Shown: positions 28,577-46,594, numbered from the stretch's first letter. The stretch: DNA of 64,000 nt from Vulcanimicrobiota bacterium (GCA_963777315.1 CAVZQC010000002.1:768001-832000), one strand, 5' to 3'. Numbers and translations are program-made. The notes: a model not told the origin generated them from the letters alone.

Positions 28577-29965
28577 TCATGCCACCCACACCGTCTGCAC
28601 GTTCGTGAATTCCCGAAGGCCGAACTGCGCAAGCTCGCGGCCGTAACCGCTCTTCTTCACGCCGCCGAAGGGGAGACGCGGGTCGGATGCAGTCATGCCG
28701 TTCACGAACACCAGCCCCGACTGCAGCCGCGCGGCGATGCGCTCGCCGCGCTCGGCGTCGGCCGTCCAGACGTTGTTGCCCAAGCCGAAGCGGGAGGCGT
28801 TGGCAAGCGCAACGGCTTCGTCGGCATCGCGCGCCTTTGCGATAGCGGCTGCCGGGCCGAACGTTTCCTCTTCAAACACCGGCATCTCCGCGCTTACGTC
28901 CGCCAGAATCGTCGGTTCGTAAAAGGCTCCGCGCGAGCCGGTGCGGCGGCCGCCGGCGAGGACGTTCGCGCCCAATGCGCGCGACGCGTCGATTTGCCGC
29001 TCGAGTTCGTCTACCAGATCGGCGCGCGCGAGCGGCCCCATCGTGACGCTGCGATCCGTCGGATCGCCGACCTTGATCCCGCGCACGTTCTCCGCAAACG
29101 CATCGCAAAACGAATCGTAAACCGGATCTTCGACGATAAACCGCTTCGCGGCGATGCAGCTCTGCCCGCAATTTTGAAAGCGGGCGCGCACCGCGGTTTT
29201 GGCCGCGGTTTGCACGTCCGCATCGGCCAGCACGATGTACGCATCGGATCCGCCCAGTTCCAGCACGCTTTTCTTGAGATAGGCGCCTGCAGCGGCGGCT
29301 ACCGCGGATCCCGCGGGTTCGCTGCCCGTGAGCGTCACCGCGGCGATGCGGGGATCGGCCAGCACGCTCTCCACCTGCGCTGCGCGAATGACGAGCGCGC
29401 CGAAGGCGCCCTCCGGGAAACCGCTCTCGCGAAACGCCGCTTCGAGCGCTTGACCGCAGCCCGTCACATTGGCGGCGTGCTTGAGAACGGCGACGTTGCC
29501 CGCAGCAAGCGCGGGAGCGGCAAAACGCACCACTTGAAAAAACGGGAAGTTCCACGGCATGACGGCAAGGATGGCGCCCAGCGGACGGTACGCGGCGTAG
29601 CTGCGCGTGGCATTCGTTTTAACGTACTCCGGCGCAAGCTGCGCGGGTGCACGCTCGGCATAATAGTCGCAGGCCCACGCGCATTTCTCGATTTCCGCCT
29701 CCGCCTCGCCCAGCGTCTTGCCCATCTCTTCCGTGACGAGCGCGGCAAGGCGCTCTTTCTCGGCGCGGAAATGTGCAGCGAGGTCTCGCAGTTTCTGCAG
29801 CCGCGCGCAGAGGTCGAATGCGCTCCACGCATGAAACGCGGCGTCCGCCGCCGCCAACCGCCGCTCGATCTCCTCCGGCTCGTGCAGTGCGTGCTGCGCG
29901 ATCGGCATGCCGGTGGCCGGATTCACCGTCGTTATCGCATCGCGTGAGGAAACCGTTGCGCTCAT
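28577..29965 (-). CDS. NAD(P)-dependent aldehyde dehydrogenase (succinate-semialdehyde dehydrogenase Sad/GabD1-like)
   Basis: MPWNFP, LTGS, LELGGSD, NCGQSCIA, EETFGP, PFGGVKKSGYGRE. ATGA-coupled to the upstream beta-propeller gene. Confidence 0.92.
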   Translation of the reverse strand: MSATVSSRDAITTVNPATGMPIAQHALHEPEEIERRLAAADAAFHAWSAFDLCARLQKLRDLAAHFRAEKERLAALVTEEMGKTLGEAEAEIEKCAWACDYYAERAPAQLAPEYVKTNATRSYAAYRPLGAILAVMPWNFPFFQVVRFAAPALAAGNVAVLKHAANVTGCGQALEAAFRESGFPEGAFGALVIRAAQVESVLADPRIAAVTLTGSEPAGSAVAAAAGAYLKKSVLELGGSDAYIVLADADVQTAAKTAVRARFQNCGQSCIAAKRFIVEDPVYDSFCDAFAENVRGIKVGDPTDRSVTMGPLARADLVDELERQIDASRALGANVLAGGRRTGSRGAFYEPTILADVSAEMPVFEEETFGPAAAIAKARDADEAVALANASRFGLGNNVWTADAERGERIAARLQSGLVFVNGMTASDPRLPFGGVKKSGYGRELAQFGLREFTNVQTVWVA

Positions 29966-30879
29966 TTCAATTCAAACTCCTGGACGGCATCTTCGTCCGG
30001 CGCAGACCACACGACCCAGATGCGCCCGGTTTTCATATCGTACGCGAGCGTGTGCGCATCGCCGGCGGAGCGTGGGATGAGCGTGCTGCCGAGTTTTTTT
30101 AGCACGCCGTTCTTGCCGATTGCGAGCACGTCGACCTCGCCGCCGCCCGCACAGGCGATCTGCTGCCTTAGCGGATCGAGATTGCACTGGTCGACTTTCG
30201 GCGTTATCGGCGCCGTAGAGATCAGCCGGCCTCCGGGCGTATAGACCGCTAATACGCCGTTCTTGCCGCCGGCGACGATCGTGCGGTTTGCTGCATCAAA
30301 CTGGAGAGGGTGGTTATTCTTCAGTTGCGGCGTCGGTATCGTGCGTACGACTTTGAGCGAACGCGGATCGATGACGGCGATCTCCGAGCGATCGGCGATG
30401 TTCTGATAGAGCCGGTGCGTCTGCGGATCGATGGCCAAGTATTCCGGCTTGTGTCCGGGAAGTTTCACGACGGCGATTTGCTTCATGCTGCGCGCGTCGA
30501 TGACGAAGATTCGCGTGCCGTCGTCTTCATCCGCATAGATGCGGTGCAGTGAGCGATCGTAAGCGATCGCGTCCACGTTGCCCGCGACGTCGACGGTACG
30601 AATCACGCTCTGCGAGCGGGGATCGATTTCCGAAACGGTGCGCGCGAGTCCGTCGCCGGTATAGACATGGCCCGAATCAGGATCGACTGCAACGCCGTGC
30701 ACCGGTGCGCTCACGTCGACCTGACCCAAAATTTTGCGCTTGTCCGCATCCACGATCAGCAATGCGTCGCTCCCGGTGTGCGCGGCGTAGACGCGGCGGC
30801 GAGGAGAATCAACTGCGACGTAATCGAATCCGCTGAGGATAGGAACTTGCTGCGGGGGGGCTGCAGGAAGTATGGGCAT
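29962..30879 (-). CDS. YncE/YVTN-like beta-propeller protein
   Basis: Repeated [VI]A[VIY]DP..r[VIL]Y.....[IV].VID units; GAGGT SD. Confidence 0.8.
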   Translation of the reverse strand: MPILPAAPPQQVPILSGFDYVAVDSPRRRVYAAHTGSDALLIVDADKRKILGQVDVSAPVHGVAVDPDSGHVYTGDGLARTVSEIDPRSQSVIRTVDVAGNVDAIAYDRSLHRIYADEDDGTRIFVIDARSMKQIAVVKLPGHKPEYLAIDPQTHRLYQNIADRSEIAVIDPRSLKVVRTIPTPQLKNNHPLQFDAANRTIVAGGKNGVLAVYTPGGRLISTAPITPKVDQCNLDPLRQQIACAGGGEVDVLAIGKNGVLKKLGSTLIPRSAGDAHTLAYDMKTGRIWVVWSAPDEDAVQEFELK

Positions 30880-30909: not shown

Positions 30910-32607
30910 TTATGGAATGTACTGTTTAGGAAGACCGGCAAAGCCGGGCGGCGGAGCGTTTTTGCCGGGAATGCGGACGGGATGCAGGTGCAGGCTGCTG
31001 CAGTCCATTTTGGCGGGAAACGTGTTGACGATGCGGTCGGCAATGATCGCTGCAGATGACGCGATCGGCGCGCGCGTTCCGCGTAGACGCTGCGCATCAA
31101 ATGCGCCGCCGAGATCCGTAAGACGGGCATTGGCATCGCGCGGCCCCTCCGGCATGTACGGTTTTTCGTCCGGAAGCGAAGCCAGGGGCGGGAGATTGAA
31201 GAGCATGTCGATGAACTTTACGACCGAACCCGTATCACCCAAGTCGTGCACGACGGCGCCCGATTTAGCGTACGGCGAGATCACGATGAACGGTATGCGC
31301 GGTCCGTCCCCGCACGGATGCCCGTCCCAGCAGCGCTCGAAGCTCGGCGGCGGCGCGTGATCGTAGAATCCGCCTTCGTCGTCCCACGTGACGATGATCG
31401 CCGAGTCTTTCCAGTAGCGGCTGCGCGCGACGGCGTTCACGAACGTGGCAACGAATGATTCGGCAACCTGACGGTCGGAGTCGCCTTCACCCGGATGATC
31501 GTCGTCGCCCTGGAACTGCTTCTGAATGAACGGCGATCGATTCGCCGGACGCCAGCCGAAGCGGTTTTGATTGCTGCCCTTCACGTAAAACGCGCCGCGA
31601 TTCGGAAGCGTGCCTGCACGCACTGCGGCAAGCAAATATTTGGGCGTGGCGACGTGATTCCAAAACACGCCGTTGCGCCGCAGGTACGCGAAGTACTGCA
31701 GAGCGTTGTGGTGCGCCGAATATCCGGAAAGCGCAGGACGGTACGGACCGTTATAGCCTTCCTGAAACCAGCCCCAGGGAACCGGAGCTTTGCCGCTCTT
31801 CGCCATCGCTTGCAGATCCGCACGTACGCCTTGCGTTTCTTGCGTGGCCTCACGATCCCGTTTACCGTTCAGCGTGAGCATCACCGTTGCATAACGCTGC
31901 ACGATCTGACGTTTCTCCTTCGGCTTTTCGCCATACGGCCCGAACGGCGGATCCATGCTGTTTTCAACCGGGACGCCGGCACCGGAACCCGTATTGCTCA
32001 CCACTTCGGACGGATTGCGCGCGGCCTGCGTTTGCCCGGTCTGCGCCGCGATGATCTCGATGTTGCCCGGTGTCGACGGGCCGGTCATGCCTTGAAAGAA
32101 ATGATCGTACAGCACGAAGTCGCGCGCGTACTTCCACAGAAATGGAATCGTGTCGCAATCGTAGTAACTCATCGTGAGCTGGCCGAGCCGCGCCTGATCC
32201 GCTGCGCCGTAGCCGTCCTTGGCGGAAGACCGCTCTTGAACCGCGATAAAGCCATCCATCTTGCCGTCGTTCATTTTACCGAGCAGGGCTGCGCGCGAAT
32301 GATCCGGGCTCTCGACGTCCGGGTCGGTAATTCTGAACGGCGTGATCCACGCTTTCGCGATGGGATCGTACTGGCGGAATCCATGCAGACCCGCCGACAC
32401 GCTCGCCAAATTGTCGGCGCGCGGATAGGTGCCGAAATAGTGATCGAACGATTCGTTTTCTTGATAGATGACGAAGACGTGTTTGATATGCCCGCGCAGC
32501 AGCGCCTCGACGGATAGGGACTTTGCCGGAGCGAAAGGTCCGCTCGCTAGCGACAGCCCCAAGAGCGCGAGCGCCAGCACACCCGCAGCTGCTCTTCGCA
32601 GCATCAC
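30910..32607 (-). CDS. Secreted phosphoesterase (phospholipase C/acid phosphatase AcpA-PlcH superfamily)
   Basis: Signal peptide; HVFVIYQENESFDHYFG, GPSTPG, DDHPG, TWDDEGGFYDH and GPRIPFIVISPYAK motifs. Confidence 0.9.
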   Translation of the reverse strand: MMLRRAAAGVLALALLGLSLASGPFAPAKSLSVEALLRGHIKHVFVIYQENESFDHYFGTYPRADNLASVSAGLHGFRQYDPIAKAWITPFRITDPDVESPDHSRAALLGKMNDGKMDGFIAVQERSSAKDGYGAADQARLGQLTMSYYDCDTIPFLWKYARDFVLYDHFFQGMTGPSTPGNIEIIAAQTGQTQAARNPSEVVSNTGSGAGVPVENSMDPPFGPYGEKPKEKRQIVQRYATVMLTLNGKRDREATQETQGVRADLQAMAKSGKAPVPWGWFQEGYNGPYRPALSGYSAHHNALQYFAYLRRNGVFWNHVATPKYLLAAVRAGTLPNRGAFYVKGSNQNRFGWRPANRSPFIQKQFQGDDDHPGEGDSDRQVAESFVATFVNAVARSRYWKDSAIIVTWDDEGGFYDHAPPPSFERCWDGHPCGDGPRIPFIVISPYAKSGAVVHDLGDTGSVVKFIDMLFNLPPLASLPDEKPYMPEGPRDANARLTDLGGAFDAQRLRGTRAPIASSAAIIADRIVNTFPAKMDCSSLHLHPVRIPGKNAPPPGFAGLPKQYIP

Positions 32608-35312
32608 GGAGTTCGGCTTCCCGTGCCGCCCAAACGCTGCGTCAGCGTAAACGTAAAGGATCTCGGGCCGATGCCGAAGCGCTCCGTGCCTTGCTGGAGC
32701 GCGTTCGCGTCAGTGCCGAACTGGTTCTCCGCCTGGTAAAGACCCAAGCCGACGCGCCCGTAGTTGTCCGTGGCTTCGTTGAACAGATTCGAGATGCCCA
32801 GGTTGATCGACGTTTCGTTGCTGAGGCGCTGGTTGAAGAACGCGTCGGCTTCGCCGAACGCCGGACGGTTGTAAGCGTTGTAGTTGTCGTAATGCGTATA
32901 GTCGATGTACACTTCGCCGCCGTGCGTATTCGTCAGGTCCATCGTAATCCCGTACGTGTGCAGCGGAATATTCGGAATCTGCGCGCCGTTGATCAGCGTC
33001 GGGTTGTTTTGGAGCAGCGTGTCCGACATGTCGAAGACGACCACGGACTGCACGTTGTAGAACGCGTCAAAGGCGAGCTGCGGCGTCACGCGGAGTCTTC
33101 CGCTCAGTTCGTAGCCGCGCGCACGCGACGTGGCCAAGTTCAGGTTGGTCGCCACCGTCAGGTTCGCAATCGTCGCCGGCGGATTTGGGGGCGAAAGGTT
33201 CGGACAGATCGACGATATGTGCTTATAGACGCCGGTAAGATACGACGGCCCGTAGAGTTGGTTGATGATGGGCACGTACGGCGCGGCCGGCAGATCGGCT
33301 TCGAAAATGGTGTTCGTTTCATTCGTATCATATGCCGTGAATTGCAGGCTGTCGTCGGTGCCGAACCGATGGGCGACCGAAGCCTCGATATCTTTGGCTT
33401 TTTCCGGAAGCTCGCCCGGGGTGGGCAGCGAGCCGAGTCCGAAAAGTTGACAGTTGCCGGGATTGATGCCGCCCGCGCCGGTTAATTCGAACGCGATCGG
33501 TGCCGGATCTGCCGATGAAGCGCCGCCCGTCAAGCGAACCACGTCGCGTGAGGTCGGCCGGTAAACGATCGAAAGTCGTGGATCGAAGGAGTTGCCGCCG
33601 AGCAGCGAGTGCTTGTACCAGGCGTTCATAAAATACGACACGCGCTCGGACGGCGTAAACGCATCGCGAATAAAGAAGCTGTCCAGCTTCGAGTACAGCG
33701 AGGCAGTCGGAATAAAGCCCGTAGAGCCGCTGATTTGATCGCCGTTGGTGTACTGGCGCTGCGCGTAAAGACCGAAACCGAGGTCGTTCTTCGCTCCCGC
33801 GATATCGTCGCTGATCAGCGTTCCATACGTGCGGAACATGCGCGTCAGCACGGAGAGATCGCCGTTGATGTTGGAGGCCGGACGCACGCGGTCTTGGCCG
33901 TAATTGTCCACGAACGAGTCGACGACGATTTGATTCTTGCCCAGCGTGGTGAGCAAACGCGCGTGGTAGTCCTGATTGCGAAGGGCTTGGAACGGTCCCT
34001 GGCCGCCGCCTGAAGGGCCGCTCGCACCTTGCGCATACTGCTGCGGAGTGACGCACTGTGCGCCGGCGTCCGTGGTTACGGTGATGCCGTTCGGTGCCGC
34101 GCCGCTTCCGATCGTGCAGTCCGGACTGCTGCTCGCCTGATACAGCGCGTAATCGTAAGAAATGAAGTCGTTGTCGCCGTTGCCGGTCTTGTCATCCCAC
34201 GAGGTCGCGGAATAGCCGGTGAGCATCAGCGAAGTTTTCGGGGAAAACGACCAGACTAACTTTGCTAAATCGTTGCGCAGAATGACGTCGCCCGTCACAC
34301 GATACGTATCGGCGGCGAGCGTTGCGGACGTCCAATCGTTACCACGCGCGCCCGTTTGCGCGATGAACTGCGGCTCGAACAGGCCGAATGTTCCGTTCAC
34401 GCCGTGAACGAGCGCATAACCGAGTTTACCGACAGTGCCCGTCGCCTGCACGCCCAAGAGCTGCGTGCCTTCATCTCCCGCTCCCCAACGCAGAACGGCC
34501 TCCGGCCGCTTCGTCGGATCGATCGTCTGAAAATCGATCGCTCCGCCCACTGCGTCGACGCCGTATAATCCGGAGGCTCCGGAACCGTACGTCACTTGTA
34601 CGCTTTTAAGGGCGAACGCGGGCGAATCGGCGAGATCGTAACCTCCCGTGCCGCCGCCGATATCCCAGCCGGGATAAACGCCCGTCGGGCCGATGGGATG
34701 CCCGTCCAAGAGAATTTGCGTTTCGCTCGGTTTGAGGCCGCGGATGTCGATGCCGATGTCGTCGCCGCGTGAAGAATCGGCGTCTGCCCGGTTCACGCCG
34801 GGCAACTTGCCCAAGCTCTCCGCCACGCGCAATTGATTGGTCTGCTGCACGACGTTGATGTCGACGTTGCTTTGGATTGTCGTCGTGGTCTGCAGCGCTC
34901 CTGCACCGCCGACGCGCACGCTCGCGATCGTGCGTAAACCGCCGGCTGAGCTCGAGCGCACCAATGCCACGTTCACGGTTGCCGGACCGGTGAGCACGAT
35001 GTCTTGCGAAGTTCCGCTCTGGTAACCGGCGGCCTGAACGAGAATCGAGTAGATGCCTTGCGGAACAGCGCTAAACGTGAAGGCTCCGTACCCGTTTGCG
35101 ATCGTCGTCGCGATCGTTTTCCCGGCTTGCTGCAGTTGCAGCCGTGCGCCGGCGACCGGAAGACCGCCGTTCTGATCGACGATGACGCCGCTGATGCTTG
35201 CGGTAGGCGGCGCGTGCGGCTGCCCCGGGGTTTGCGCAGCTGCGGGCCGTCCCGCGAAAAAAGCGCAGGATAAAATCGATATGATTAACCCTAACGTTCG
35301 TAATCGGATCAT
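32604..35312 (-). CDS. TonB-dependent receptor with N-terminal carboxypeptidase-regulatory-like domain
   Basis: Signal peptide, ISGVIVD..G.PVAGA, plug (LPGV, IRG, LLDGHP, G..AVGGAIDF), barrel ending in NLFN...GPRSFTFTL. AAGGAGG SD. Confidence 0.88.
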   Translation of the reverse strand: MIRLRTLGLIISILSCAFFAGRPAAAQTPGQPHAPPTASISGVIVDQNGGLPVAGARLQLQQAGKTIATTIANGYGAFTFSAVPQGIYSILVQAAGYQSGTSQDIVLTGPATVNVALVRSSSAGGLRTIASVRVGGAGALQTTTTIQSNVDINVVQQTNQLRVAESLGKLPGVNRADADSSRGDDIGIDIRGLKPSETQILLDGHPIGPTGVYPGWDIGGGTGGYDLADSPAFALKSVQVTYGSGASGLYGVDAVGGAIDFQTIDPTKRPEAVLRWGAGDEGTQLLGVQATGTVGKLGYALVHGVNGTFGLFEPQFIAQTGARGNDWTSATLAADTYRVTGDVILRNDLAKLVWSFSPKTSLMLTGYSATSWDDKTGNGDNDFISYDYALYQASSSPDCTIGSGAAPNGITVTTDAGAQCVTPQQYAQGASGPSGGGQGPFQALRNQDYHARLLTTLGKNQIVVDSFVDNYGQDRVRPASNINGDLSVLTRMFRTYGTLISDDIAGAKNDLGFGLYAQRQYTNGDQISGSTGFIPTASLYSKLDSFFIRDAFTPSERVSYFMNAWYKHSLLGGNSFDPRLSIVYRPTSRDVVRLTGGASSADPAPIAFELTGAGGINPGNCQLFGLGSLPTPGELPEKAKDIEASVAHRFGTDDSLQFTAYDTNETNTIFEADLPAAPYVPIINQLYGPSYLTGVYKHISSICPNLSPPNPPATIANLTVATNLNLATSRARGYELSGRLRVTPQLAFDAFYNVQSVVVFDMSDTLLQNNPTLINGAQIPNIPLHTYGITMDLTNTHGGEVYIDYTHYDNYNAYNRPAFGEADAFFNQRLSNETSINLGISNLFNEATDNYGRVGLGLYQAENQFGTDANALQQGTERFGIGPRSFTFTLTQRLGGTGSRTP

Positions 35313-35513: not shown

Positions 35514-36290
35514 CTATCGCGCTGAAGTGAGCCGGCCCATCTCGTGCTGAAGGGCCTGCAGCTCAGCGCCGCCCGCCATATGGCGGACCAGGTCTTCCAG
35601 CGTAAGCTCCGAGCGCCGCGCGTCCAGCTCGATGCGGCCCAAATTCAGCACCGCGAAACGATCGCCGACCAGATAGGCGTGATGCGGGTTATGACTGATG
35701 AAAATGACCGCTAGGCCCGCGTCGCGAGCTGCGGCAATGTACTTGAGCACGACGCCGGACTGTTTGACGCCGAGCGCGGCTGTCGGCTCATCCAATATGA
35801 GCACGCGCGCGCCGAAATGAATGGCGCGCGCAATTGCGACGACTTGCATTTCGCCGCCCGACAGTTTGCCGACAGGCGCGTCGAGATCGGGCAGTTCGAT
35901 GCCCATTTTGGCGAGTTCCTCATCGGCGGTGCGGCGCATCGTCGCAACATCGAGCCGCCGGAACGGCCAAACGCCGGTGACGATCTCCGAACCGAGAAAA
36001 AAATTGCGCCACACCGGCATGAGCGGTATCAGCGCCAAGTCTTGATACACGGTAGCGATTCCGGCATCCAATGCTTGCCGCGGCGAAGAAAAGCGGACTT
36101 CGTTCCCGTGCACGCGTAAGACTCCCGAGTCGTGCGGGTGCAGCCCTGCAATAATTTTGATCAGCGTTGATTTGCCGGCGCCGTTGTCGCCGAGGATGCA
36201 CGTGACTTCGCCGGCGCGCACGGCCAGGTTGATGTCGCTGAGCGCGCGGATGTTGCCGTATTGCTTGCCGACGTTGCACAGCTCGATCAT
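35514..36290 (-). CDS. Sugar (inositol-type) ABC transporter ATP-binding protein
   Basis: [33 protein letters not shown]. Confidence 0.92.
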
Positions 36291-37327
36291 TTCTTCTCAA
36301 CCTGCGAGCGGACGAACATGTTGACCAGCGTCGCCAGAAGAAGCATCGCGCCGAGGAAAAACTTGAACCAGTCCGGGTTCCACCCCGCATACACCACGCC
36401 TTGACTCACTACGCCGAAGATCAGCGCCCCGATCGCGGCGCCGATCACGGATCCGTATCCGCCCGTCAACAAACAGCCGCCGACTACTGCGGCAACGATG
36501 TACTCGAGTTCAAGGCCGACGCCGCCTCCGGACTGCACCGTGTTGTATGCGAACAACTGATGCATGCCGGCGATCCACGCGCACAGGCCCACCGTCATAA
36601 ACAACGCGATCTTCGTACGCTTGACCGGAACGCCGACGGCGCGCGCACTGGCAGCGTTACCGCCGGCCGCGAAGATCCAATTGCCCGCCGGCGTTCGCAA
36701 GAGCACCCACGTGCCGGCCGCAACGAGCGCAAGCCACCAAAGGATGCTGACGTTCACGTCAGTGCCGTTCACATTCATCGTCGTGGCGAAAATCGCGTGG
36801 GCCGAACCGAAGCCGGCCATGTTCGAGATGTCGTTGGTTGCGACGTTGTTCGTCACCAGCCGCGTGATCGCCAAGTTGATGCCTTGAAGCATGAGGAACG
36901 TGCCGAGCGTGACGAGGAAACTCGGCACTCCGGTTCGCACGAGCACCCATCCGTTGAACGCGCCGATGCTCAATGAAAGCGCAAGAGCGACGACGACGCC
37001 GACCCATACGTTCGTGCCCATTTGGTAGTCGAACATCGAAGCCGTCAGCGCGGACGAAATCACGGCCACGCCCGCCGAAAGATCGAATTCGCCGCCGATC
37101 ATCAGCAGCGCCACGCCCACGGCCATGATGCCCAGCGTGGAACTCTGATAGAGCACCGTACTAATGGAGCCGGGATGCCGGATCGACGGCGCCATCACCG
37201 AAAAGAACACGATGACGATGACGGCGCCCATCAGCGAGCCGACTTCCGGCCGCATCAAAAATATCCGCAGCGGCGATCGCCGCGTCATCCGTTTGCCGGC
37301 GGGTGCAAGCGCCGACGTGGAACTCAT
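36287..37327 (-). CDS. Sugar (inositol-type) ABC transporter permease
   Basis: [48 protein letters not shown]. Confidence 0.92.
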
Positions 37328-38304
37328 CGCGTTCCCTTTGCCGCGAATTTTGCGATCGCGTTAATGTTGCTCGCGTCGATGAACGCGGGACCCGTGAGCA
37401 TTGCCTGCCCGCCGCCGAGCACGTCGCCGTTCGTAATGTTCAGCCATAAAACGTCGACGGCCTCGTATCCTTGAGCGTACGGCTGTTGATCGATCGCCCA
37501 GAGAACGCTGCGGTTTTGGATCGCTCCGACAAGCTGCTTATTGGTGTCGAACGTTACCACTTTTGCGTTGCTCCGTGCCGCCTGCACCGCGGTCACCGCC
37601 GTGAGCGCAATCGGCGCACCCAGTGTAACGACGTAGTCTATGCCGGGATCCTGCTGCAGCTTTGCGGTTAGCGTCGAGCGTACCGACGGCATGTCGGCGC
37701 CGTTGACGTAGATCTTCTCGCTGCGCGCGCTTGTCAGACCCTGCTGCAAGCCGGTGCAGCGCGCTTCCAGCTGCACTTCGCCCTGCGACTGTATCACGCA
37801 TAAAACGTGCTTTGCACCCTGGCGGCTCAAGCGCTGTCCGGCCGCACGCCCCGCAAGGGTCTCGTCCTGGCCGACGTACATCGGAATGCCCAGGCGTTTC
37901 CATGCATCGAAGCCCGCATTGAATGCAATAACCGGAATGCCCATTTGCTGAGCCTTGCGCACTTCGCCCGCGAGCGCATCCGGCGTGGGAAGCGTCACGG
38001 CGATGCCGTCGACGCGCTGATCGATCGCGTTTTGGATGAGAACGGCTTGGGCGTTCGCGTTCTGGTCGTTGGAGTAAATCAGGTCGACGTTGTCTTTTGC
38101 GGACGCGGCTTCCGCGCCCTTACGGACGATGTCCCAAAAGGTATCGCCGGGAGCCTGATGGGTGATCATAGCGATCCGCAAACGCGGCAATCGTACCGCG
38201 GCGCCGGAGGCCGAACGTGCCCCCCCGGTGCTGCTGCAGCCGGCAAGCAGCGCCAGCGCACTGAGGATAACCGCGACAGATGTAGCCGTTTTATGCAGCA
38301 GCAT
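37324..38304 (-). CDS. Sugar (inositol-type) ABC substrate-binding lipoprotein
   Basis: LAGC lipobox; ITHQAPGDTFWDIVRKGAE, GQDE, IDQQPYAQGY. Confidence 0.9.
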   Translation of the reverse strand: MLLHKTATSVAVILSALALLAGCSSTGGARSASGAAVRLPRLRIAMITHQAPGDTFWDIVRKGAEAASAKDNVDLIYSNDQNANAQAVLIQNAIDQRVDGIAVTLPTPDALAGEVRKAQQMGIPVIAFNAGFDAWKRLGIPMYVGQDETLAGRAAGQRLSRQGAKHVLCVIQSQGEVQLEARCTGLQQGLTSARSEKIYVNGADMPSVRSTLTAKLQQDPGIDYVVTLGAPIALTAVTAVQAARSNAKVVTFDTNKQLVGAIQNRSVLWAIDQQPYAQGYEAVDVLWLNITNGDVLGGGQAMLTGPAFIDASNINAIAKFAAKGTR

Positions 38305-38440: not shown

Positions 38441-39223
38441 ATGGCAGCAACGGTGATCAACTCGCTTTCGAGAGGCGTTCGCATCTTGCGCCTGCTCGCC
38501 ACCAGGGGCAGCGGCGTGGGGGTAACCGAGGTCGCCGACCACTTGGACGTCGACCCGAGCACGGCATACCGGCTGCTCAGCACGCTCGAACTGCACGGCC
38601 TGGTGAATCAAGACGCCGACAGCAAGAGATACGCGATCGGCTACGGCGTGCTCGAGATCGCCTCCGGCTTGCTGCGCCGGCTCAGCGTGGTCGAGATTTC
38701 TCAGCCCTACTTGCGCACGCTCACGGCGCGCACCGGGGAAAACACGCACGTCGCGGTTCGCGATCGCCGCCATGCGGTCTCCGTCGGAGCAGAGTCCGCG
38801 ACCGGTATTTTACGCGTCGAAACGATGCTCGGCTCCGCCGAACCCTTGCATTGCACGGCCGTCGGCAAAGCGCTCATTTCGGATTTCACGCGCGCGCAGC
38901 TCATCGAACTCTTTGAAGGTGAGACGTTCGAGCGGCATACGCCGCATACCATAACGAGCATCGACGAGCTCGATTTCGATTTGTCGCGCGTACGGCGCGC
39001 AGGATATGCGATCGACGACGAGGAGCTGCATCCGGGTGTGCGCTGCATCGCCGCACCCGTGCGCGATCACGGCGGCAACATCATCGCCGCATTCGGACTC
39101 TCGTCGCCGGCAGTTCGTCTGACGCGAGAACGGGTTCCGGAGTTGGCGCAAGACGTTCTCGAGTCGGCGCAGGCCATTTCGCAGCAACTGGGATACGCCC
39201 CCGCTGCGGCAGGCGCTTCTTAA
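38441..39223 (+). CDS. IclR family transcriptional regulator
   Basis: SLSRGVRIL HTH, STAYRLL.TL, TGE, PLHCTAVGKAL, GYAIDDEE..GVRCIAAP. Confidence 0.93.
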   Translation: MAATVINSLSRGVRILRLLATRGSGVGVTEVADHLDVDPSTAYRLLSTLELHGLVNQDADSKRYAIGYGVLEIASGLLRRLSVVEISQPYLRTLTARTGENTHVAVRDRRHAVSVGAESATGILRVETMLGSAEPLHCTAVGKALISDFTRAQLIELFEGETFERHTPHTITSIDELDFDLSRVRRAGYAIDDEELHPGVRCIAAPVRDHGGNIIAAFGLSSPAVRLTRERVPELAQDVLESAQAISQQLGYAPAAAGAS

Positions 39224-39235
39224 GAGGAGCACGAT

Positions 39236-41044
39236 ATGCGCATGACGGGCGGTCAGATCGTGGCCGAGTACTTGGTACGCGAAGGCGTGCCTATGCTGTT
39301 CGGCGTGCCGGGTCACGGCATAACGGCGCTGCTCGATGCGTTCGTCGATCGCCGGGACGAAATTGCGGTGATTCAGGCGATTCACGAGCAGGGCGCCGCG
39401 CACATGGCGGATGCGTATTATCGCGTCGCAGGCAAGCCGTGCGGCGTCTTTACCTCGATCGGCCCCGGAGCCGTCAACACCGCGATGGGTGTCGCCTGCG
39501 CGTACATCGACTCCATTCCGCTTCTGCTGCTGACGGGGTCCGTGCACACCTACATGCGCGGCCGGGGCGTGCTGCAGGAACTCGAGCGCACGCACTGGGC
39601 GAACTTTCCGCGCATGATGGAGCCGGTCGTGAAACGCTGGTGGCAGCCTAGCCGCGTCGACCAGCTTCCCAACGTCCTGCATCTGGCATTCAACGTGATG
39701 CTCGAAGGGCGGCGCGGACCGGCGCACATCGACATTCCGATGGACGTGCAAGCCGAGTTCGCGGAGATTGACGAGTTTCCCAATCCGGTGACGCGCCGTC
39801 CGCGCGGGCGCGCGCACGGCGATCCCGACATGGTTGACAAAGCGGCAAAATTGCTGCTGGGCGCGGAGCGTCCGCTGATCGTCGCGGGCGGCGGCATCGT
39901 AGCCTCGGGCGCGGAAGAGCAGCTGCGCGAGATTGCGGAGTTTCTCGGCGCGCCGGTCACCGTCACCTGGATGGGCAAGGGCGCGATCCCTGAAGACCAC
40001 GAGCTCTACGCGTGGCCGTGCGGCGACCTCGGTTCCATATCGGGCAATACGCTCGCGCGTGAAGCCGACGTGCTTTTGGCCGTGGGATGCCGCTTTACCG
40101 ATCGCACCGCATCGTCATTCCGGCGCGGTGTGACGTTCTCGATTCCGCCGACCAAGCTCGTGCAGATCGATATGGACCCGTACGAGATCGGCAAGAACTA
40201 CCCGGTCGAAGCGGGCATCGTCGGCGACGCGCGCGCTACGCTCTCCGATCTGCTGCTTACGCTGCGAGAGCTCGCGCGCCAGCGCGACTACCGCGCGTCT
40301 GCGTATTTCGAGCGCGTTCAAGACCTGAAAGCTCAATGGCAGCAGGCGCTGCGTGGACCGCGAGAGAGCGATGCCGCGCCGATGACGATTTCGCGGGCGC
40401 TGGTGGAGGCGCGAAAGGTTCTCGAGCGCGACGGCATCATCGTAACCGGCGCGGGGAATCCCCAAAGTCAAGCGTTCACCGAGTTTCCGGTCTACGGCAG
40501 CCGCCAGCACATCACCGCCGGCGGTTTCTCCGCCATGGGTTTCGAAGTGCCGGCCGCCATCGGCGCCAAGCTGGCCGCGCCCGACAAGCAAGTCATGGCG
40601 ATTGTCGGCGACGGAAGTTTTCTGCAGACGGTTCAAGAGCTTGCGATGGCGGCGCAATACGATATTCCGGTCGTGTTCCTAGTCATGAACAACTACGGCT
40701 GGGAGTGCATCAAAAATCTGCAGTCGCTGCAGTTCGGCCCCGACCGCGTCATTGCGACGAACTTCAAAAAGCGCGACGGCACGCCGTTCTCGGCCGATCT
40801 TGCGCGCGTTTCGGAAGGTTTTGGCTGCCATGCGGAACGCGTGGAGCATCCGGCGGAGCTCGGGCCGGCGCTCAAGCGCGCGTTCGCGTGCGGCCGTCCC
40901 GCCGTGGTTGAAGCGCTCTGCAGCAGACAACTTCCCGATAGCGGTTTGACGGCGACGGGATGGTGGGACGTAACGGTTCCCGCCTATCACGAAGAGCAGC
41001 GCCGTAAATACGAGGAGGCGCGCTCACAGGAGACGCTGACTTAA
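39236..41044 (+). CDS. iolD: ThDP-dependent 3D-(3,5/4)-trihydroxycyclohexane-1,2-dione acylhydrolase (ring-opening), divergent/ALS-like
   Basis: FGVPGHG, HEQ, TSIGPG, GDGSF...NN ThDP motif, C-terminal WWDV motif typical of IolD; iol gene context. Confidence 0.8.
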   Translation: MRMTGGQIVAEYLVREGVPMLFGVPGHGITALLDAFVDRRDEIAVIQAIHEQGAAHMADAYYRVAGKPCGVFTSIGPGAVNTAMGVACAYIDSIPLLLLTGSVHTYMRGRGVLQELERTHWANFPRMMEPVVKRWWQPSRVDQLPNVLHLAFNVMLEGRRGPAHIDIPMDVQAEFAEIDEFPNPVTRRPRGRAHGDPDMVDKAAKLLLGAERPLIVAGGGIVASGAEEQLREIAEFLGAPVTVTWMGKGAIPEDHELYAWPCGDLGSISGNTLAREADVLLAVGCRFTDRTASSFRRGVTFSIPPTKLVQIDMDPYEIGKNYPVEAGIVGDARATLSDLLLTLRELARQRDYRASAYFERVQDLKAQWQQALRGPRESDAAPMTISRALVEARKVLERDGIIVTGAGNPQSQAFTEFPVYGSRQHITAGGFSAMGFEVPAAIGAKLAAPDKQVMAIVGDGSFLQTVQELAMAAQYDIPVVFLVMNNYGWECIKNLQSLQFGPDRVIATNFKKRDGTPFSADLARVSEGFGCHAERVEHPAELGPALKRAFACGRPAVVEALCSRQLPDSGLTATGWWDVTVPAYHEEQRRKYEEARSQETLT

Positions 41045-41045
41045 C

Positions 41046-42053
41046 ATGTCCGGCGCGCGGCCGGGAATTGCCGTGCTTGGAGCCGGCCGCATGGGGTCGG
41101 TGCACGCGCGCAATATTGCCGCATCGAACGCCCTTCTCGCCGGAATCGCCGACGTCGATGACGCGGCGGCAACGCGCCTGGCAGAATCGCTCGACACGCA
41201 CACGGGTTCCATCGAAGACTTCTTGCGCGATCCGCGCGTGAACGCCGTCGTGATCACGACGCCGAGTGGGACTCACGCGCAGCTGATCGAGCGATGCGCG
41301 CAGGCCGGCAAGCACATTTTTTGCGAGAAACCGATCTCGCTCGACGTGAGCACCACCGTCGGCGCAACCGATGCGTGCAAACGCGCGGGCATTGTGCTGC
41401 AAATCGGCTTCCAGCGCCGCTTCGATCGGCATTTCGTTCAAGCGCATGAGGCGATCGCTCGAGGCGAAGTCGGCGAGATGCGATTCCTGCGTCTGGTGAG
41501 CCGGGACCGCGCGCTGCCGCCCATTTCGTACATTCCGACGAGCGGCGGACAGTTCCGCGATCAGATGGTGCACGACTTCGATGCGGCGCGCTGGCTGCTT
41601 GCGCCGGCGCACGTTGAAGACGTCACCGCAACGGGAACCGCCGCGAACGGCGCGATCGCCCAGGCGGGCGACGTGGACACCTCCGTCGCCGTGCTGCGCT
41701 TCTCGAACGGCGCCGTTGCCGTCCTCGACGTTACGCGGGAAGCGGCGTACGGCTACGACGTGCGCATCGAAGTGCTCGGCTCCCGCGGCATGCTGCTTGC
41801 GGGCGCCGACGGCATGCCGCAGGGGCATGTACTGGATGCTTCGTTTGCGGCTCCGCTTACCGACTCGTTCATCACCCGGTTCGCCGATGCGTACCGCGAG
41901 GAGATCCGCGAATTCGTCAGCGTGCTGGAGAACGGCGGAGACGTTCGAGCGGGTGGCGACGATGCGCTTCAGGCGTTGCGCCTAGCGATCGCTGCCGATC
42001 GTTCGCGCGAAGACGGCCGCACCGTCAGGCTCGCCGATGTTGAAGGCGGGTAG
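41046..42053 (+). CDS. iolG: Inositol 2-dehydrogenase (Gfo/Idh/MocA)
   Basis: GAGRMG, CEKP, GFQRRFD, SRD, SGG.F.D...HDFD, YGYDVRIEV, F..RF..AY. Confidence 0.88.
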   Translation: MSGARPGIAVLGAGRMGSVHARNIAASNALLAGIADVDDAAATRLAESLDTHTGSIEDFLRDPRVNAVVITTPSGTHAQLIERCAQAGKHIFCEKPISLDVSTTVGATDACKRAGIVLQIGFQRRFDRHFVQAHEAIARGEVGEMRFLRLVSRDRALPPISYIPTSGGQFRDQMVHDFDAARWLLAPAHVEDVTATGTAANGAIAQAGDVDTSVAVLRFSNGAVAVLDVTREAAYGYDVRIEVLGSRGMLLAGADGMPQGHVLDASFAAPLTDSFITRFADAYREEIREFVSVLENGGDVRAGGDDALQALRLAIAADRSREDGRTVRLADVEGG

Positions 42054-42855
42054 CGTGCTTCTCGTTCACCCGCAATACGGCCGGCATGAGATCATTTCGA
42101 TCGCACCGGACGCAAAGGGCTGGAACTACGTGCACTTCAGCGCCCTGCGTCTTGCGTTGGGAGCATTGCATGCCGGCAATACCGGGGGCAACGAGGTGCT
42201 GATCGTCCTTATCGGCGGAACGGCAAAAATTCAATGCGGCGATGCATGTTGGGACAGGGTCGGGAGCCGCGTGACCCCCTTCGCGGGGCCGCCGGAGGCA
42301 GTCTATCTGCCGGCGCAATCCGATTACGAAATTCAGGCCATGACCGATTGCGAAGTCGCCGTCTGCGGTGCCGTTGCTCGAGGCGCTGCGCGAAGCGCGC
42401 GGTTCATCAAATTGAGTCAAGGTGATGCGCGAGGCCGCGGCACCGGAAACGCCCAGCGAACGATTTACAACATCCTCATGGGCGAGGATGAAGCCTCCAC
42501 GCTGTTCGTCACCGAAGTCCTCACGCCACCCGGAAACTGGTCGAGTTATCCTCCGCACAAACACGATACGGACAATCCGCCCACCGAGTCCGCCCTGGAA
42601 GAACTGTATTATTATCGCGCGATGCCGGCCCCCGGTTTCGCGTTCCAGCGGATCTACACCAAAGACGGCGAGCTGGATGAAACGGTTACCGCACACGATC
42701 GGGACGTCGTGCTGGTGCCGCGCGGTTACCATGTTTGCGCTGCGGCTGCGGAATACGCAATCTACTATCTCAACGTCCTGGCCGGACCGAAACACGTGTA
42801 TCACATGACCTTCGATCCGGATCATGAGTGGATACGCAAAGGCTGGACGTGGTGA
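42037..42855 (+). CDS. iolB: 5-deoxy-glucuronate isomerase
   Basis: EV.TP.GNWSSYPPHKHD, LEE.YYY, GFAFQRIY, VPRGYH, YYLNVLAGP. Start may instead be GTG 42055. Confidence 0.93.
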   Translation: MLKAGSVLLVHPQYGRHEIISIAPDAKGWNYVHFSALRLALGALHAGNTGGNEVLIVLIGGTAKIQCGDACWDRVGSRVTPFAGPPEAVYLPAQSDYEIQAMTDCEVAVCGAVARGAARSARFIKLSQGDARGRGTGNAQRTIYNILMGEDEASTLFVTEVLTPPGNWSSYPPHKHDTDNPPTESALEELYYYRAMPAPGFAFQRIYTKDGELDETVTAHDRDVVLVPRGYHVCAAAAEYAIYYLNVLAGPKHVYHMTFDPDHEWIRKGWTW

Positions 42856-43730
42856 GCGCGATGCACGTCGGAACTGCGTCCGTGAACTGGGGCTTCGATC
42901 CGTTCTACACCTGGGCTACGACACCGCCGTTCGGCCGGATGCTCGACGAGATGGCGCTCGCGGGCTACGAGGGAACGGAGATCAGCTATAACTTCCCCGA
43001 CGACAGCGCGCTTCTGCGCGAAGAGCTGCAGCGTAGGAACCTGCGTCCGGCGGGAACTTTTCATGCCGTAAACCTGCGCGATCGCGCGAATCACGACGCA
43101 GCGCTCGAGAGTTCGCTGCGCGTCGGGCGGCGCTTGCGAGATCTCGGATCGGACGTTCTAATCCTCTCGGATTATGCTACGCCGCAACGCATGCAAATCG
43201 GGGGCCGCGTAACGCCGGACGACATGCTGGACAGGGCGGTGTGGCCGGTCATGGCGGAAGGTCTGCACCGTATCGCCCAAGCGCTGCGCGCATTAGGAAT
43301 TCGCGCGGTGTTTCACCCGCACGTCGGCACGTACGTCGAAACGCTTGCGGAGATCGAGCGGCTGTGTGAAGTCACCGATCCGGCGCTCATTGCGCTGTGC
43401 CCGGACACCGGCCACTTGGCGTACGCGGGCGCGGATCCGAATCGGATATTCACCGACTATCGCGATCGCATCGGCTACGTGCATTTGAAAGACGTCGATC
43501 CGGCAACGCTCCAACGCGTGCGCAGCGAGCGAATCGGTTTTACGGAGGCCGTCAGAATGGGCATGTTCGTCGAACTTGGCACGGGGATGGTGGATGCCGC
43601 GCGAATCATCAAATCGCTGCGGGAAGCAAGGTACAGCGGGTGGATCGTCGTCGAACAAGACGCGCCGCGCGAACCGCTCGCATCGGCGACGGCGAACCGG
43701 CGCTATTTGCGCGAGCGGTGTGCGATATGA
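42852..43730 (+). CDS. iolE: Myo-inosose-2 dehydratase-like TIM barrel (sugar phosphate isomerase/epimerase family)
   Basis: GYEGTE, FHPHVGTYVET, DTGH, VHLKD, GWIVVEQD; GTGA overlap with iolB. Confidence 0.8.
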   Translation: MSAMHVGTASVNWGFDPFYTWATTPPFGRMLDEMALAGYEGTEISYNFPDDSALLREELQRRNLRPAGTFHAVNLRDRANHDAALESSLRVGRRLRDLGSDVLILSDYATPQRMQIGGRVTPDDMLDRAVWPVMAEGLHRIAQALRALGIRAVFHPHVGTYVETLAEIERLCEVTDPALIALCPDTGHLAYAGADPNRIFTDYRDRIGYVHLKDVDPATLQRVRSERIGFTEAVRMGMFVELGTGMVDAARIIKSLREARYSGWIVVEQDAPREPLASATANRRYLRERCAI

Positions 43731-44563
43731 ACGCCGATCGAATCCCGGCGATCGCGAATGAACTGCGGCGCCGCGTTCTGAGCGCCGTCCAGCACGCCGG
43801 CGCCGGACATATCGGCGGCGTTCTCTCGGCAGCGGAGATGCTGGCAGCGCTTTACTTTCACGTGCTGCGCATCGATCCGGCGCGCCCGGACTGGCCGGAT
43901 CGCGATCGCTTCATTCTTTCTAAGGGCCATTGCGCGATCGGACTGTACGCGGTACTCGCGTTGCGCGGATATTTCGACATCGAAGAACTCGACCGGTTCG
44001 ACGCGATCGATTCACCGCTGCAAGGCCATCCCGACATGACGAAGGCGCCCGGGCTCGACATGTCGACCGGTTCACTCGGGCAGGGACTCTCGCCGGGCCT
44101 GGGCATGGCGCTCGCCGCACGGAAGTTGGGCCGCGCGTTTCGTACCTGGGTCATGCTCGGCGACGGCGAGATCCAGGAAGGGCAGATTTGGGAGGCGGCT
44201 TTCTGCGCTTCGCGTTATCAAGCCGACACTTTGACCGCGATTTTGGATTGGAATCATCTGCAGCAGTTCGGCTGGGCAACCGCGGACGGCTACGCCTCCA
44301 TCGCGCGGCGCGACCCGACCGACGATCCGCGCGCAAAGTGGGAAGCGTTCGGCTGGAACGTGCTCGAATGCGACGGCCACGATGCGTCCGCTTTTATTGA
44401 CGCCTGCGACGCGGCGTCGGCAACTCGCGGAAAACCGTCGATCATCATCGCGCACACGATCAAGGGCAAGGGCGTATCGTTTATGGAGAACGACTACACA
44501 TGGCATTCGCGCCCCCTATCCGACGCCGACGTTGCGCGCGCGTTTGCGGAGCTGCGAGGCTGA
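43727..44563 (+). CDS. Transketolase, N-terminal (ThDP-binding) subunit
   Basis: GHIGG, DRDRFILSKGH, LQGHP, STGSLGQG, GDGE..EG..WEA...N, T.KGKG. ATGA overlap with iolE. Confidence 0.93.
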   Translation: MNADRIPAIANELRRRVLSAVQHAGAGHIGGVLSAAEMLAALYFHVLRIDPARPDWPDRDRFILSKGHCAIGLYAVLALRGYFDIEELDRFDAIDSPLQGHPDMTKAPGLDMSTGSLGQGLSPGLGMALAARKLGRAFRTWVMLGDGEIQEGQIWEAAFCASRYQADTLTAILDWNHLQQFGWATADGYASIARRDPTDDPRAKWEAFGWNVLECDGHDASAFIDACDAASATRGKPSIIIAHTIKGKGVSFMENDYTWHSRPLSDADVARAFAELRG

Positions 44564-44564
44564 T

Positions 44565-45494
44565 ATGACGGCTCAGCGCGACGTCTTCGGCGAAACGCTC
44601 GTAGAATTGTGCGCGTCGGATGCGCGCGTGGTGGTGCTTGACGGCGATCTTGCGAATTCCACGAAGTCGGACAAAGTTGCGGCAGCGCGGCCCGACCGAT
44701 TCTTCATGCTCGGCATCGCGGAGCAAAATCTTGCCGGCGTAGCGGCCGGAATGGCGACGGTGGGGCTCGTTCCTTGGGTCAGTTCCTTCGCGGCGTTTCT
44801 GGCGACGCGCGATCTCGATCAGATTCGCGTCGTCGTCGCGCAGCCTCGGCTGAACGTCAAGTTCGCCGCGCATTACAGCGGCATTCTGACCGGATTTACC
44901 GGCAAGACCCATCAGGTCGTGAACGATATCGCGATCATGCGCACGCTGCCGAACATGACGGTGATCGCTCCCTGCGACGGACCGGAGGCGCGCGAAGCGA
45001 TTCTCGCCGCCACGCAATTTGACGGACCGGTCTACATGCGGCTGACGCGCGATCCGGTTGCGACGGTAACGCAAGCGGGGCGCCGCTTTACCATCGGCAG
45101 CGCGGTGTTTCTGCGTGAAGGTGGCGACTTGGGACTCATTGCCACGGGCGCGCAAACCGTTCGCGCGATGGAAGCGGCAGCGTTGCTCGCGGCCGATGGC
45201 ATCGGCGCCGGCGTTCTGCACGTACCGACGATCAAGCCGCTCGACGAAGCGGCGATTCTGGATTTCGCGCGCTCGGTCTCGTGCGTCCTCACGTGCGAAG
45301 AGCATTCGATACTCGGCGGTTTGGGCGGCGCCGTTGCGGAAGTTCTCGCGGCACGTTTGCCGATGCGCGTGGAGCGCCTCGGGCTTGCGGACGTCGACGG
45401 AGAGAGCGCGCCCAACGATGCGCTGCTGGAGAAGTATGGTCTCACGCCGCAGCATATCGCAAGACGCGCGCGAGCCTTGCTGGCCGTGGCATGA
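44565..45494 (+). CDS. Transketolase, C-terminal (pyrimidine-binding + C) subunit
   Basis: DL..ST, GIAEQN, DQIR, G.THQ, GPVYMRL, IKPLD, EEH...GGLG. Confidence 0.93.
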   Translation: MTAQRDVFGETLVELCASDARVVVLDGDLANSTKSDKVAAARPDRFFMLGIAEQNLAGVAAGMATVGLVPWVSSFAAFLATRDLDQIRVVVAQPRLNVKFAAHYSGILTGFTGKTHQVVNDIAIMRTLPNMTVIAPCDGPEAREAILAATQFDGPVYMRLTRDPVATVTQAGRRFTIGSAVFLREGGDLGLIATGAQTVRAMEAAALLAADGIGAGVLHVPTIKPLDEAAILDFARSVSCVLTCEEHSILGGLGGAVAEVLAARLPMRVERLGLADVDGESAPNDALLEKYGLTPQHIARRARALLAVA

Positions 45495-46594
45495 GCGCGG
45501 CGATTGCGGTGCTGCCCGGAGACGGCATCGGCCCGGAGGTTATCGCGCAAGCCGTGCGCGTGCTGCGAAGCGTTCGTCCCGACGTCGAATGCATTGAAGC
45601 GCAAGTCGGAGGCGCCGCGCTCCGAGCCGGGCAAACGCCTCTTCCCGATGACGTTCGAGCGCTGTGCGACCGCAGCGACGCGATTCTGTTCGGTGCCGTC
45701 GGCGACGCCGAATTCGATACTGGACCGTTTGAAAGCAGGCCGGAGGCCGCGCTGTTCGCGCTGCGGCGCGATTACGGCTTGTTTGCGAATTTGCGGCCGG
45801 TGCGGGTGTATCCGGGCCTCGAGCCTGCCTCGTCACTGCACGCCACGCTCATCAAGGATTTGGATCTGATCGTGGTGCGCGAACTGACCGGCGGCATCTA
45901 TTTCGGCGCACCGAAAGAACGCGGCGTCGACGCCGGAGGCATGCGCTGGGCCGTCGACACGATGCGCTATACCGCCGGTGAAGTCGAACGCATTGCGCGC
46001 GTAGCGTTCGAACTGGCGCGGATGCGCCGCAAGCGCGTCACCTCGGTCGACAAGCATAACATTCTCGCCACGTCGCGTCTGTGGCGTGAAGTCGTCGTTG
46101 AGGTTGCGCGATCGTATCCCGACGTGCAGCTCGAGCACTTGCTCGTCGACAACGCTTCGATGCAGCTCGTGCGCCGGCCGGCCGAGTTCGACGTTATCGT
46201 GACCGAAAACATGTTCGGCGACATTCTTTCGGACGAGGCGGCGATTTTAACCGGCTCGATTGGAAATCTGCCCAGCGCGAGCCTGACTGCGGGTGAGCCC
46301 GGGCGCACCTTCGGCATGTACGAGCCGATCGGCGGAACGGCGCCGGATATCGCCGGCAAAGGCATCGCCAATCCCGCCGCAGCGATCCTTTCGGCGGCGC
46401 TGCTGCTTCGCCACAGTTTGCATGATGACGGCTCGGCCGCACGCATCGAGGGTGCGGTGGAACGCGCATTTGCAGATGGAATACGAACGGCCGATCTTAC
46501 GCGCGGCGGCGAAGACCGCGTAACGTGCGCCGCATTCGGCAACGCCGTGCTCGCGCGGTTGGAGTCACCGGCGCTCGACGGCGTTCGGGAATAA
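45491..46594 (+). CDS. leuB: 3-isopropylmalate dehydrogenase family beta-decarboxylating dehydrogenase
   Basis: LPGDGIGPEV, RPE..L..LR, ANLRP, VRELTGGIYFG, NMFGDILSDEA, EP.GG.APDIAGKGIANP. ATGA-coupled to transketolase; no leuA/C/D nearby. Confidence 0.85.
   Translation: MSAAIAVLPGDGIGPEVIAQAVRVLRSVRPDVECIEAQVGGAALRAGQTPLPDDVRALCDRSDAILFGAVGDAEFDTGPFESRPEAALFALRRDYGLFANLRPVRVYPGLEPASSLHATLIKDLDLIVVRELTGGIYFGAPKERGVDAGGMRWAVDTMRYTAGEVERIARVAFELARMRRKRVTSVDKHNILATSRLWREVVVEVARSYPDVQLEHLLVDNASMQLVRRPAEFDVIVTENMFGDILSDEAAILTGSIGNLPSASLTAGEPGRTFGMYEPIGGTAPDIAGKGIANPAAAILSAALLLRHSLHDDGSAARIEGAVERAFADGIRTADLTRGGEDRVTCAAFGNAVLARLESPALDGVRE

Follow-up and report, generated by a model that had tools for sequence, protein, structure and literature searches.

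A conserved inositol gene cluster with a split transketolase and a LeuB paralogue points to a possible variant lower pathway in a Vulcanimicrobiota bacterium

The closest described system to the gene cluster reported here is the canonical inositol (iol) pathway of Bacillus subtilis and Salmonella, and split transketolases with a catabolic role are known from apiose (AptAB) and sulfoquinovose (SqwGH) degradation. We analyzed a 64,000-nucleotide stretch of a Vulcanimicrobiota bacterium genome (GCA_963777315.1, CAVZQC010000002.1:768001-832000; G000:C2:768001-832000 in our numbering), referred to below as the window, and found that, as in the canonical pathway, the genes for IolG, IolE, an IolD-like protein, and IolB stand together and are accompanied by a regulator and a transporter. 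Unlike in that pathway, IolC and IolJ were not found, IolA is unlinked, and IolD is of a sister clade; linked instead are a split transketolase, a LeuB paralogue, and a Sad-type aldehyde dehydrogenase (Table 1). We read the locus as a real, conserved variant of inositol catabolism that is probably new in its lower route. The source genome is 2.83 Mb and 89.89% complete, it belongs to an uncultured soil bacterium, and the closest named relatives of the iolD-like gene are “Candidatus Eremiobacter”/Eremiobacteraeota.

Two further systems resemble the chemistry that we propose for 2-deoxy-5-keto-D-gluconate (DKG), the expected product of the upper pathway. In two reports, a transketolase and a succinate semialdehyde dehydrogenase (SSDH) convert 5-keto-D-gluconate to L-tartrate (PMC13527115, PMC12016104). 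That route likewise has an unphosphorylated 5-keto-hexonate donor, a C4 semialdehyde product, and SSDH-type oxidation, but it used housekeeping or engineered enzymes at low yield, whereas here the donor would be a 2-deoxy compound and the enzyme a member of a dedicated natural clade. The lower L-carnitine pathway runs through the same intermediates that we propose, from malic semialdehyde to D-malate to pyruvate and CO2 (PMC11353897). There, however, the aldehyde arises from a monooxygenase, the solved malic semialdehyde dehydrogenase (8S33) is distant from the enzyme in our locus, and the last enzyme here is LeuB type rather than DmlA type. A large iol survey treats iolB, iolC, iolD, and iolE as core, and its main text contains the word “transketolase” 0 times (PMC9430895). 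Titles and abstract openings, in a search with most subscription journals and supplements outside its range, yielded no paper on a transketolase step in inositol catabolism; the name of DKG combined with transketolase matched no papers, and inositol is unmentioned in the available parts of two split-transketolase papers (PMC7661550, PMC13663882).

The iolD-like, iolG, iolB, iolE, tktN, tktC, and leuB genes are seven intact open reading frames (ORFs) in one coupled run, with junctions of +1, -17, -4, -4, +1, and -4 nt, bearing out the tight run of overlaps and 1-nt gaps described in a first-pass annotation of this sequence; the iclR gene lies 12 nt upstream of the iolD-like ORF. Our sample of the source phylum comprised 301 genomes, 29 of which have iolB, 16 of these in the class of the source genome. 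The arrangement is not due to chance, as the order iolD-G-B-E-tktN-tktC-leuB recurs in 16/16 iolB genomes of the class (in one over two contigs, in several with assembly frameshifts). IolC scored above cutoff in none of these 16 cluster genomes, single-contig genomes among them, versus all 13 iolB genomes of other classes, which amounts to one phylogenetic contrast; no such transketolase occurs in the stretches read from those 13. The neighborhood survey proposed at first pass thus finds iolB, iolD, and iolE together with tktN and tktC and without iolC in all 16 sampled iolB genomes of the class. A 17th cluster genome (G011) is 72% complete. Unpublished genomes enter the own-phylum cluster, LeuB, and IlvC counts (G008, G019, G021, G036), the IolC count (G244), and the second-phylum tallies described below (G472), and the conclusions do not rest on any of these alone. 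Three genomes of one family (G248, G297, G298) have IolC above cutoff and no iolB match at E ≤1e-20.

We propose that the locus serves the uptake and degradation of myo-inositol or a close cyclitol, with a lower route that needs no kinase. From their family membership, IolG, IolE, the IolD variant, and IolB would produce DKG. IolB yields 5-deoxy-D-fructuronate (DKG) with a D-threo pair that transketolases accept. The split transketolase would move the C5-C6 ketol of unphosphorylated DKG to an aldose phosphate, for example, glyceraldehyde 3-phosphate (G3P), leaving the C4 compound (R)-3-hydroxy-4-oxobutanoate (malate semialdehyde), CHO-CH(OH)-CH2-COOH, with a D-side hydroxyl. The Sad-type dehydrogenase or, in genomes that lack it, an unlinked paralogue would oxidize this aldehyde to D-malate, in agreement with the earlier stereochemical tracing to D-(R)-malate, which held when rechecked by hand. 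The LeuB paralogue would then convert D-malate to pyruvate and CO2, so that inositol and G3P would give xylulose 5-phosphate, pyruvate, CO2, and 3 NAD(P)H at no cost in ATP. Gene content and order, their conservation, the residue changes, and the lack of IolC across the genomes searched are observed, whereas every reaction after DKG is inferred. Cleavage of DKG by the transketolase appears likely, and we give the full sequence from DKG through malate semialdehyde and D-malate to pyruvate an even chance. Recycling of the C2 unit by phosphoketolase was considered and dropped; only one of 5 cluster genomes gave a match to the enzyme, and the source genome gave none.

The tktN gene is translationally coupled to iolE by a 4-nt overlap. 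Relative to E. coli TktA, the two chains keep H26, H66, H100, D155, N185, H261, R358, S385, E411, H473, and R520 and carry the changes H461Y, E468F, D469T, and P471K; the ordinary acceptor loop (H461, D469) is not present. In all 88 C-terminal chains picked by this motif from 98, position 461 is Y or F, 469 is T or A, and 471 is K or R, and H473 is kept. These 88 group with five variants, apart from five ordinary sequences, in a tree with moderate support (0.83) that was built without L240 and L241; duplicate loci and frameshifted or partial copies were left out of the alignments. The split enzyme of Carboxydothermus (ChTK; 6YAK) has the same two-chain architecture and conserved thiamine diphosphate (ThDP) residues but keeps the ordinary H/ED loop. 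AptAB and SqwGH, compared by description only, also have two chains; unlike for those systems, this locus holds no apiose or sulfo-sugar genes, and no AptAB or SqwGH family model is among the profile matches of the window proteins. The predicted TktN-TktC complex scored 0.91 (best control, 0.01), with runs agreeing on at least 98% of contacts and a partner pLDDT of at least 94; the mark for this score was reached by 51/78 solved and 2/108 mismatched pairs. Because a like complex has already been solved (6YAK), the predicted pairing shows only likeness to that enzyme.

Loss of an acidic residue and gain of a lysine would suit a carboxylate-ended donor. D469 normally binds the 2-hydroxyl of the acceptor. 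Features of this pocket weigh against our proposal: D469 is lost, although the proposed C4 aldehyde and DKG bear the very hydroxyl that it reads, and D469T could accommodate a donor lacking it. DKG as the donor is therefore argued from context and not from the pocket. The loss of H461 and D469 also weakens the usual aldose-phosphate site, as expected if DKG is cleaved but its pieces have another fate, either through an acceptor-free ketol lyase that releases glycolaldehyde for the aldehyde dehydrogenase or because the C4 aldehyde leaves otherwise, with LeuB in a side role. Such a fate would fit the patchiness or absence of leuB and the aldehyde dehydrogenase outside the lineage, but R358, S385, and R520 are kept, and leuB is maintained under purifying selection in 16/16 genomes, nearly all without ilvC; we consider it unlikely. 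D469T is known as a change in propanal-accepting transketolase (PMC10787763), and in the engineered tartrate-route enzyme, the H461 position coincides with that changed here, while R358 and R520 were changed there and are kept here.

From metagenomes, we analyzed 79 of 80 loci (L242 was left out), several of which are near-copies and 5 of which are of the window's operon type. The motif is present in 57 of the other 74, and 26 of those 57 non-Eremiobacterota loci carry iolB/D/E or iolM/N/O and none carries iolC; ordinary-motif loci, which are mostly short, have iol genes in 0/8 cases. IolM, IolN, IolO, and canonical IolD occur as neighbors of the transketolase clade above their cutoffs, canonical IolD in operons L182, L189, and L221. 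In eight loci (L180, L189, L194, L195, L199, L200, L204, L205), the transketolase is divergent from iolM-iolN(-iolO). This arrangement suggests that the Thermotoga-type inositol route may also be left by way of a transketolase. A second-phylum sample (351 genomes, centered on G307, titled Chloroflexi) contained the transketolase (threshold E ≤1e-98) in 24 genomes, iolB in 80, and iolC in 29. None of the 24 transketolase genomes has iolC; among iolB genomes, IolC is present in 0/8 with the transketolase versus 28/72 others (Fisher p 0.026, with kin that are not independent).

The same sample also holds evidence against an inositol-specific role for this clade. The clade is broader than inositol catabolism, because 16/24 transketolase genomes lack iolB and 16/21 loci lack any iol gene. 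In one locus (L312, G382:C9), iolB, a transaldolase-like gene, and a true methylmalonate semialdehyde dehydrogenase (MMSDH) stand together with a related split transketolase, iolD, and iolE. Some clade loci have TRAP transporters, enolase-superfamily enzymes, and aldehyde dehydrogenases as neighbors. Elsewhere (L212 to L214, L219), the genes next to related transketolases are UPF0261, PEP-hydrolase-like, 2-phosphosulfolactate-phosphatase-like, and transaldolase-like genes and, once, a RuBisCO-like gene. Split transketolases with H461Y, D469T, and P471K could form a widespread undescribed subfamily that evolved to cleave unphosphorylated acid ketoses (5-keto-hexonates) with relaxed stereo-control. 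Such enzymes would complete inositol degradation downstream of the IolB route, where DKG leads to D-malate, as well as of the IolM/N/O route, which would end in a tartrate. They would also represent, in nature, the kind of catalyst that has been sought for tartrate production from 5-ketogluconate. We offer this broader proposal tentatively and would not, on balance, expect all of it to hold.

The first-pass annotation reported no IolC, IolJ, or IolA in the window, as we confirm; the aldehyde dehydrogenase that the window does encode is not of the IolA type. Genome-wide, the absence extends to IolC and IolJ but not to IolA. No IolC was found in the source genome, where the only match above cutoff among the PfkB-family kinases, the kinases searched, is a heptose kinase; TIGR04382 had no match, nor did the IolJ class II aldolase family (PF01116), with the fused DUF2090 aldolase not searched separately. 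An IolA-type MMSDH above TIGR01722 is encoded on contig C4, unlinked and within a pyrimidine-degradation run, and a DeoC-type aldolase is also present. At C4:58087-60900, the MMSDH and a glutamate-synthase-small-chain-like (PreT-like) domain share one 937-amino-acid frame, either a fusion or an assembly read-through. With this MMSDH and aldolase in a genome that is 89.89% complete and was searched for PfkB kinases, an unrecognized kinase might phosphorylate DKG for canonical chemistry, completed by an aldolase and the C4-encoded MMSDH, with the transketolase and leuB serving pentose-phosphate or amino-acid metabolism or being passengers; the 44/80 second-phylum iolB genomes that lack both IolC and this transketolase at the thresholds used would fit as well. 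We think this improbable, as IolC is unfound in all 16 cluster genomes, single-contig ones included, the MMSDH sits with pyrimidine degradation, and the transketolase is coupled to iolE and redundant with two others in the genome, a full-length enzyme and a second split enzyme with the ordinary motif.

The LeuB paralogue scores above TIGR00169 (444 versus 353 bits), with its catalytic residues present by alignment. The isopropylmalate dehydrogenase (IPMDH) family assigned at first pass therefore holds, but the protein is of the ordinary LeuB type and not DmlA-like, and its type is one of several points that count against a role in D-malate decarboxylation. It falls below the tartrate/D-malate model TIGR02089 (228 versus 470 bits) and shares 52% identity with E. 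coli LeuB and 35% with DmlA. F for L96 and I for V198, at positions that line the alkyl pocket, occur in all 17 cluster LeuB rows and also in most unlinked paralogues. Mapping the cluster copies on the LeuB tree takes 2 label changes, and bootstrapping unites them in one clade in only 22% of trees (the alignment excluded duplicate loci and copies that were frameshifted or partial). In G011, leuB is truncated, ending after ~90 codons, and outside the lineage only 1 IPMDH-family gene lies beside the transketolase in 95 other loci. We rejected a distinct pocket for the cluster LeuB, as its changes are common to the unlinked paralogue. Association of D-malate dehydrogenase with the transketolase in other phyla was likewise unsupported and tells against the proposal, with 5/23 transketolase, 6/28 iolC, and 4/20 other second-phylum genomes carrying it (G472 was left out); one second-phylum locus (L295) does pair the transketolase with a true tartrate/D-malate dehydrogenase (523 versus 470 bits).

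Other observations favor a role for LeuB within the cluster. The gene is kept beside the iol and transketolase genes in 16/16 class genomes sampled, and it is under purifying selection (dN 0.11 and dS 1.2 versus G001; dN/dS ~0.09). Leucine synthesis does not explain this copy, since ilvC occurs in 1/17 cluster genomes and, in one family of 11 genomes (f3), LeuB above cutoff is found only in the 2 cluster genomes. The source genome has no IlvD, IlvC, or acetolactate synthase above cutoff and only a divergent LeuA-like protein. As the first-pass annotation had advised looking for, a second leuB (68%) exists; it lies beside a gene that we read, from its sequence only, as divIVA-like. A LeuB at C2:3284-4360, a fused LeuC-D-type dehydratase at C4:708764-710560, and a divergent LeuA/homocitrate-synthase-like protein at C1:183080-184480 are dispersed in the source genome, and other relatives that lack ilvC also retain LeuB copies of this kind. 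Overall, the route first suggested for this locus came through the searches for IolC and IolJ, for a sole leuB, and for leuB conservation, but without a DmlA-like LeuB and with the leuB linkage confined to the lineage.

Oxidation of malate semialdehyde had been named earlier as a step with the enzyme left open, and a linked candidate is now apparent. The aldehyde dehydrogenase that ends the divergent run, absent from the earlier gene list, overlaps the preceding gene by 4 nt, and its best solved relatives are Sad/SSADH enzymes (E 1e-136 for Sad versus 3e-77 for 8S33); it is a candidate for malate semialdehyde oxidation. A like gene lies 3 to 14 kb upstream on the divergent strand in 6/17 cluster genomes, a frameshifted copy occurs in G216, and in G201 and G223 the gene accompanies the same phosphoesterase module on separate contigs, for a total of 9/17. 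In a tree, the eight intact linked copies cluster as one clade (0.948), separate from the common paralogue; duplicate loci and frameshifted or partial copies were kept out of the alignment. The 7 best matches obtained from ten non-cluster genomes all fall outside this clade, two of them as its nearest neighbors. The iol-transketolase operon of another lineage likewise ends in a non-IolA aldehyde dehydrogenase (L224, L231). Against this assignment, no linked copy was found in 8/17 cluster genomes (G011, G015, G039, G161, G167, G200, G261, G269), and the enzyme might be part of the phosphoesterase module instead. One report implicates E. coli Sad in oxidation of the other malate semialdehyde regioisomer (PMC12104201).

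Of the upper-pathway proteins, IolB exceeds its TIGR04378 cutoff (285 versus 205 bits), IolG falls slightly short of TIGR04380 (Table 1), and IolE falls below TIGR04379 (212 versus 290 bits), the iol models being the best families for the latter two. The IolD-like protein reaches 328 bits against a TIGR04377 cutoff of 715 and obtains better scores from acetolactate-synthase models; in a tree, however, canonical IolD is the sister group of its clade (FastTree support, 0.984), and the two have motifs in common. The earlier iolD call thus stands as a relationship by tree and motifs, but the protein is non-canonical. We read it as a probable IolD variant because a Bacillota-titled locus (L061) has a member of the same clade next to iolE, iolB, and true iolC genes. 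A role as the genome's acetolactate synthase was rejected from the tree, the motifs, and the unfound ilvC and ilvD. In Actinomycetota-titled loci (L056 to L060, L062, L063), the neighbors of the IolD variant are a GMC oxidoreductase, an iron alcohol dehydrogenase, a ThuA-domain protein, an MMSDH, and distant IolE and IolG homologues, possibly another cyclitol pathway.

The subthreshold IolD and IolE scores would also be compatible with another substrate for our locus, a deoxy-, C-methyl-, or amino-inositol or an epimer, whose donor lacks or inverts the hydroxyl read by D469 and whose C4 acid is succinate, methylmalate, or tartrate. The D469T change across the whole clade, the binding protein (whose best NCBIfam match, below cutoff, is a rhizopine-catabolism binding protein), the SSADH-like aldehyde dehydrogenase, and the clade's occurrence beside above-cutoff IolM, IolN, and IolO, whose products have other configurations, point the same way. 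IolB above its cutoff, the same transketolase clade with canonical IolD in three operons, and the IolD variant with true IolC in L061 argue for inositol, and we regard a different cyclitol as a poor prospect. The divergent run comprises, in order, the binding protein, permease, ATPase, TonB-like receptor, phosphoesterase, propeller, and aldehyde dehydrogenase, and the phosphoesterase may release inositol from phosphate esters.

Should the proposed route through malate semialdehyde and D-malate hold, inositol, a major soil product of phytate turnover, would have an ATP-free lower pathway, and iolC-based surveys would score such pathways as incomplete. A common “transketolase” subfamily that a single short motif identifies would gain a function, and the retention of LeuB copies in bacteria auxotrophic for amino acids would be explained. 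The enzymes would also be natural catalysts for converting keto-sugar acids to chiral C4 acids.

Table 1. Genes of the inositol locus and the adjoining divergent run, in window coordinates
Feature	Position	Strand	Evidence and remarks
Sad/SSADH-type aldehyde dehydrogenase, candidate malate-semialdehyde dehydrogenase	28577..29965	-	PF00171; NF006915 560 bits vs cutoff 730
Beta-propeller-like protein, divergent run	29962..30879	-	Weak propeller matches, below cutoff; recurs near cluster in relatives
Phosphoesterase-family protein	30910..32607	-	PF04185; adjoins cluster in many relatives
TonB-receptor-like protein	32604..35312	-	PF07715 plug and PF13620; adjoins cluster in most relatives
Sugar ABC transporter ATPase	35514..36290	-	PF00005
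Sugar ABC transporter permease	36287..37327	-	PF02653
Sugar-binding protein	37324..38304	-	PF13407; NF052284 173 vs 420 bits
IclR-family regulator, first gene of catabolic run	38441..39223	+	PF01614, PF09339; conserved as first gene
Non-canonical IolD, putative ThDP ring-opening hydrolase	39236..41044	+	TIGR04377 below cutoff; sister clade to canonical IolD
IolG-like inositol dehydrogenase	41046..42053	+	TIGR04380 343 vs 355 bits
IolB, 5-deoxyglucuronate isomerase	42037..42855	+	TIGR04378 above cutoff
IolE-like inosose dehydratase	42852..43730	+	TIGR04379 best family; GTG start at 42852 inferred from overlap
Split transketolase N-terminal chain (tktN)	43727..44563	+	PF00456; H26, H66, H100, D155, N185, H261 equivalents kept
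Split transketolase C-terminal chain (tktC)	44565..45494	+	PF02779, PF02780; H461Y, E468F, D469T, P471K (E. coli numbering)
LeuB paralogue, candidate D-malate decarboxylating dehydrogenase	45491..46594	+	TIGR00169 above cutoff; conserved in cluster

A promoter and terminator scan of the locus gave no signal above shuffled sequence, and a plasmid search returned top matches of <60% identity and identified no cultured carrier of the operon. Directly 3' of leuB, at window positions 46698 to 47725, lies an Xre/RES-type toxin-antitoxin pair that was unseen there in the relatives compared. An RpiB-family isomerase is encoded 3 kb downstream of the run, at positions 49914 to 50342, with a second copy elsewhere in the genome.

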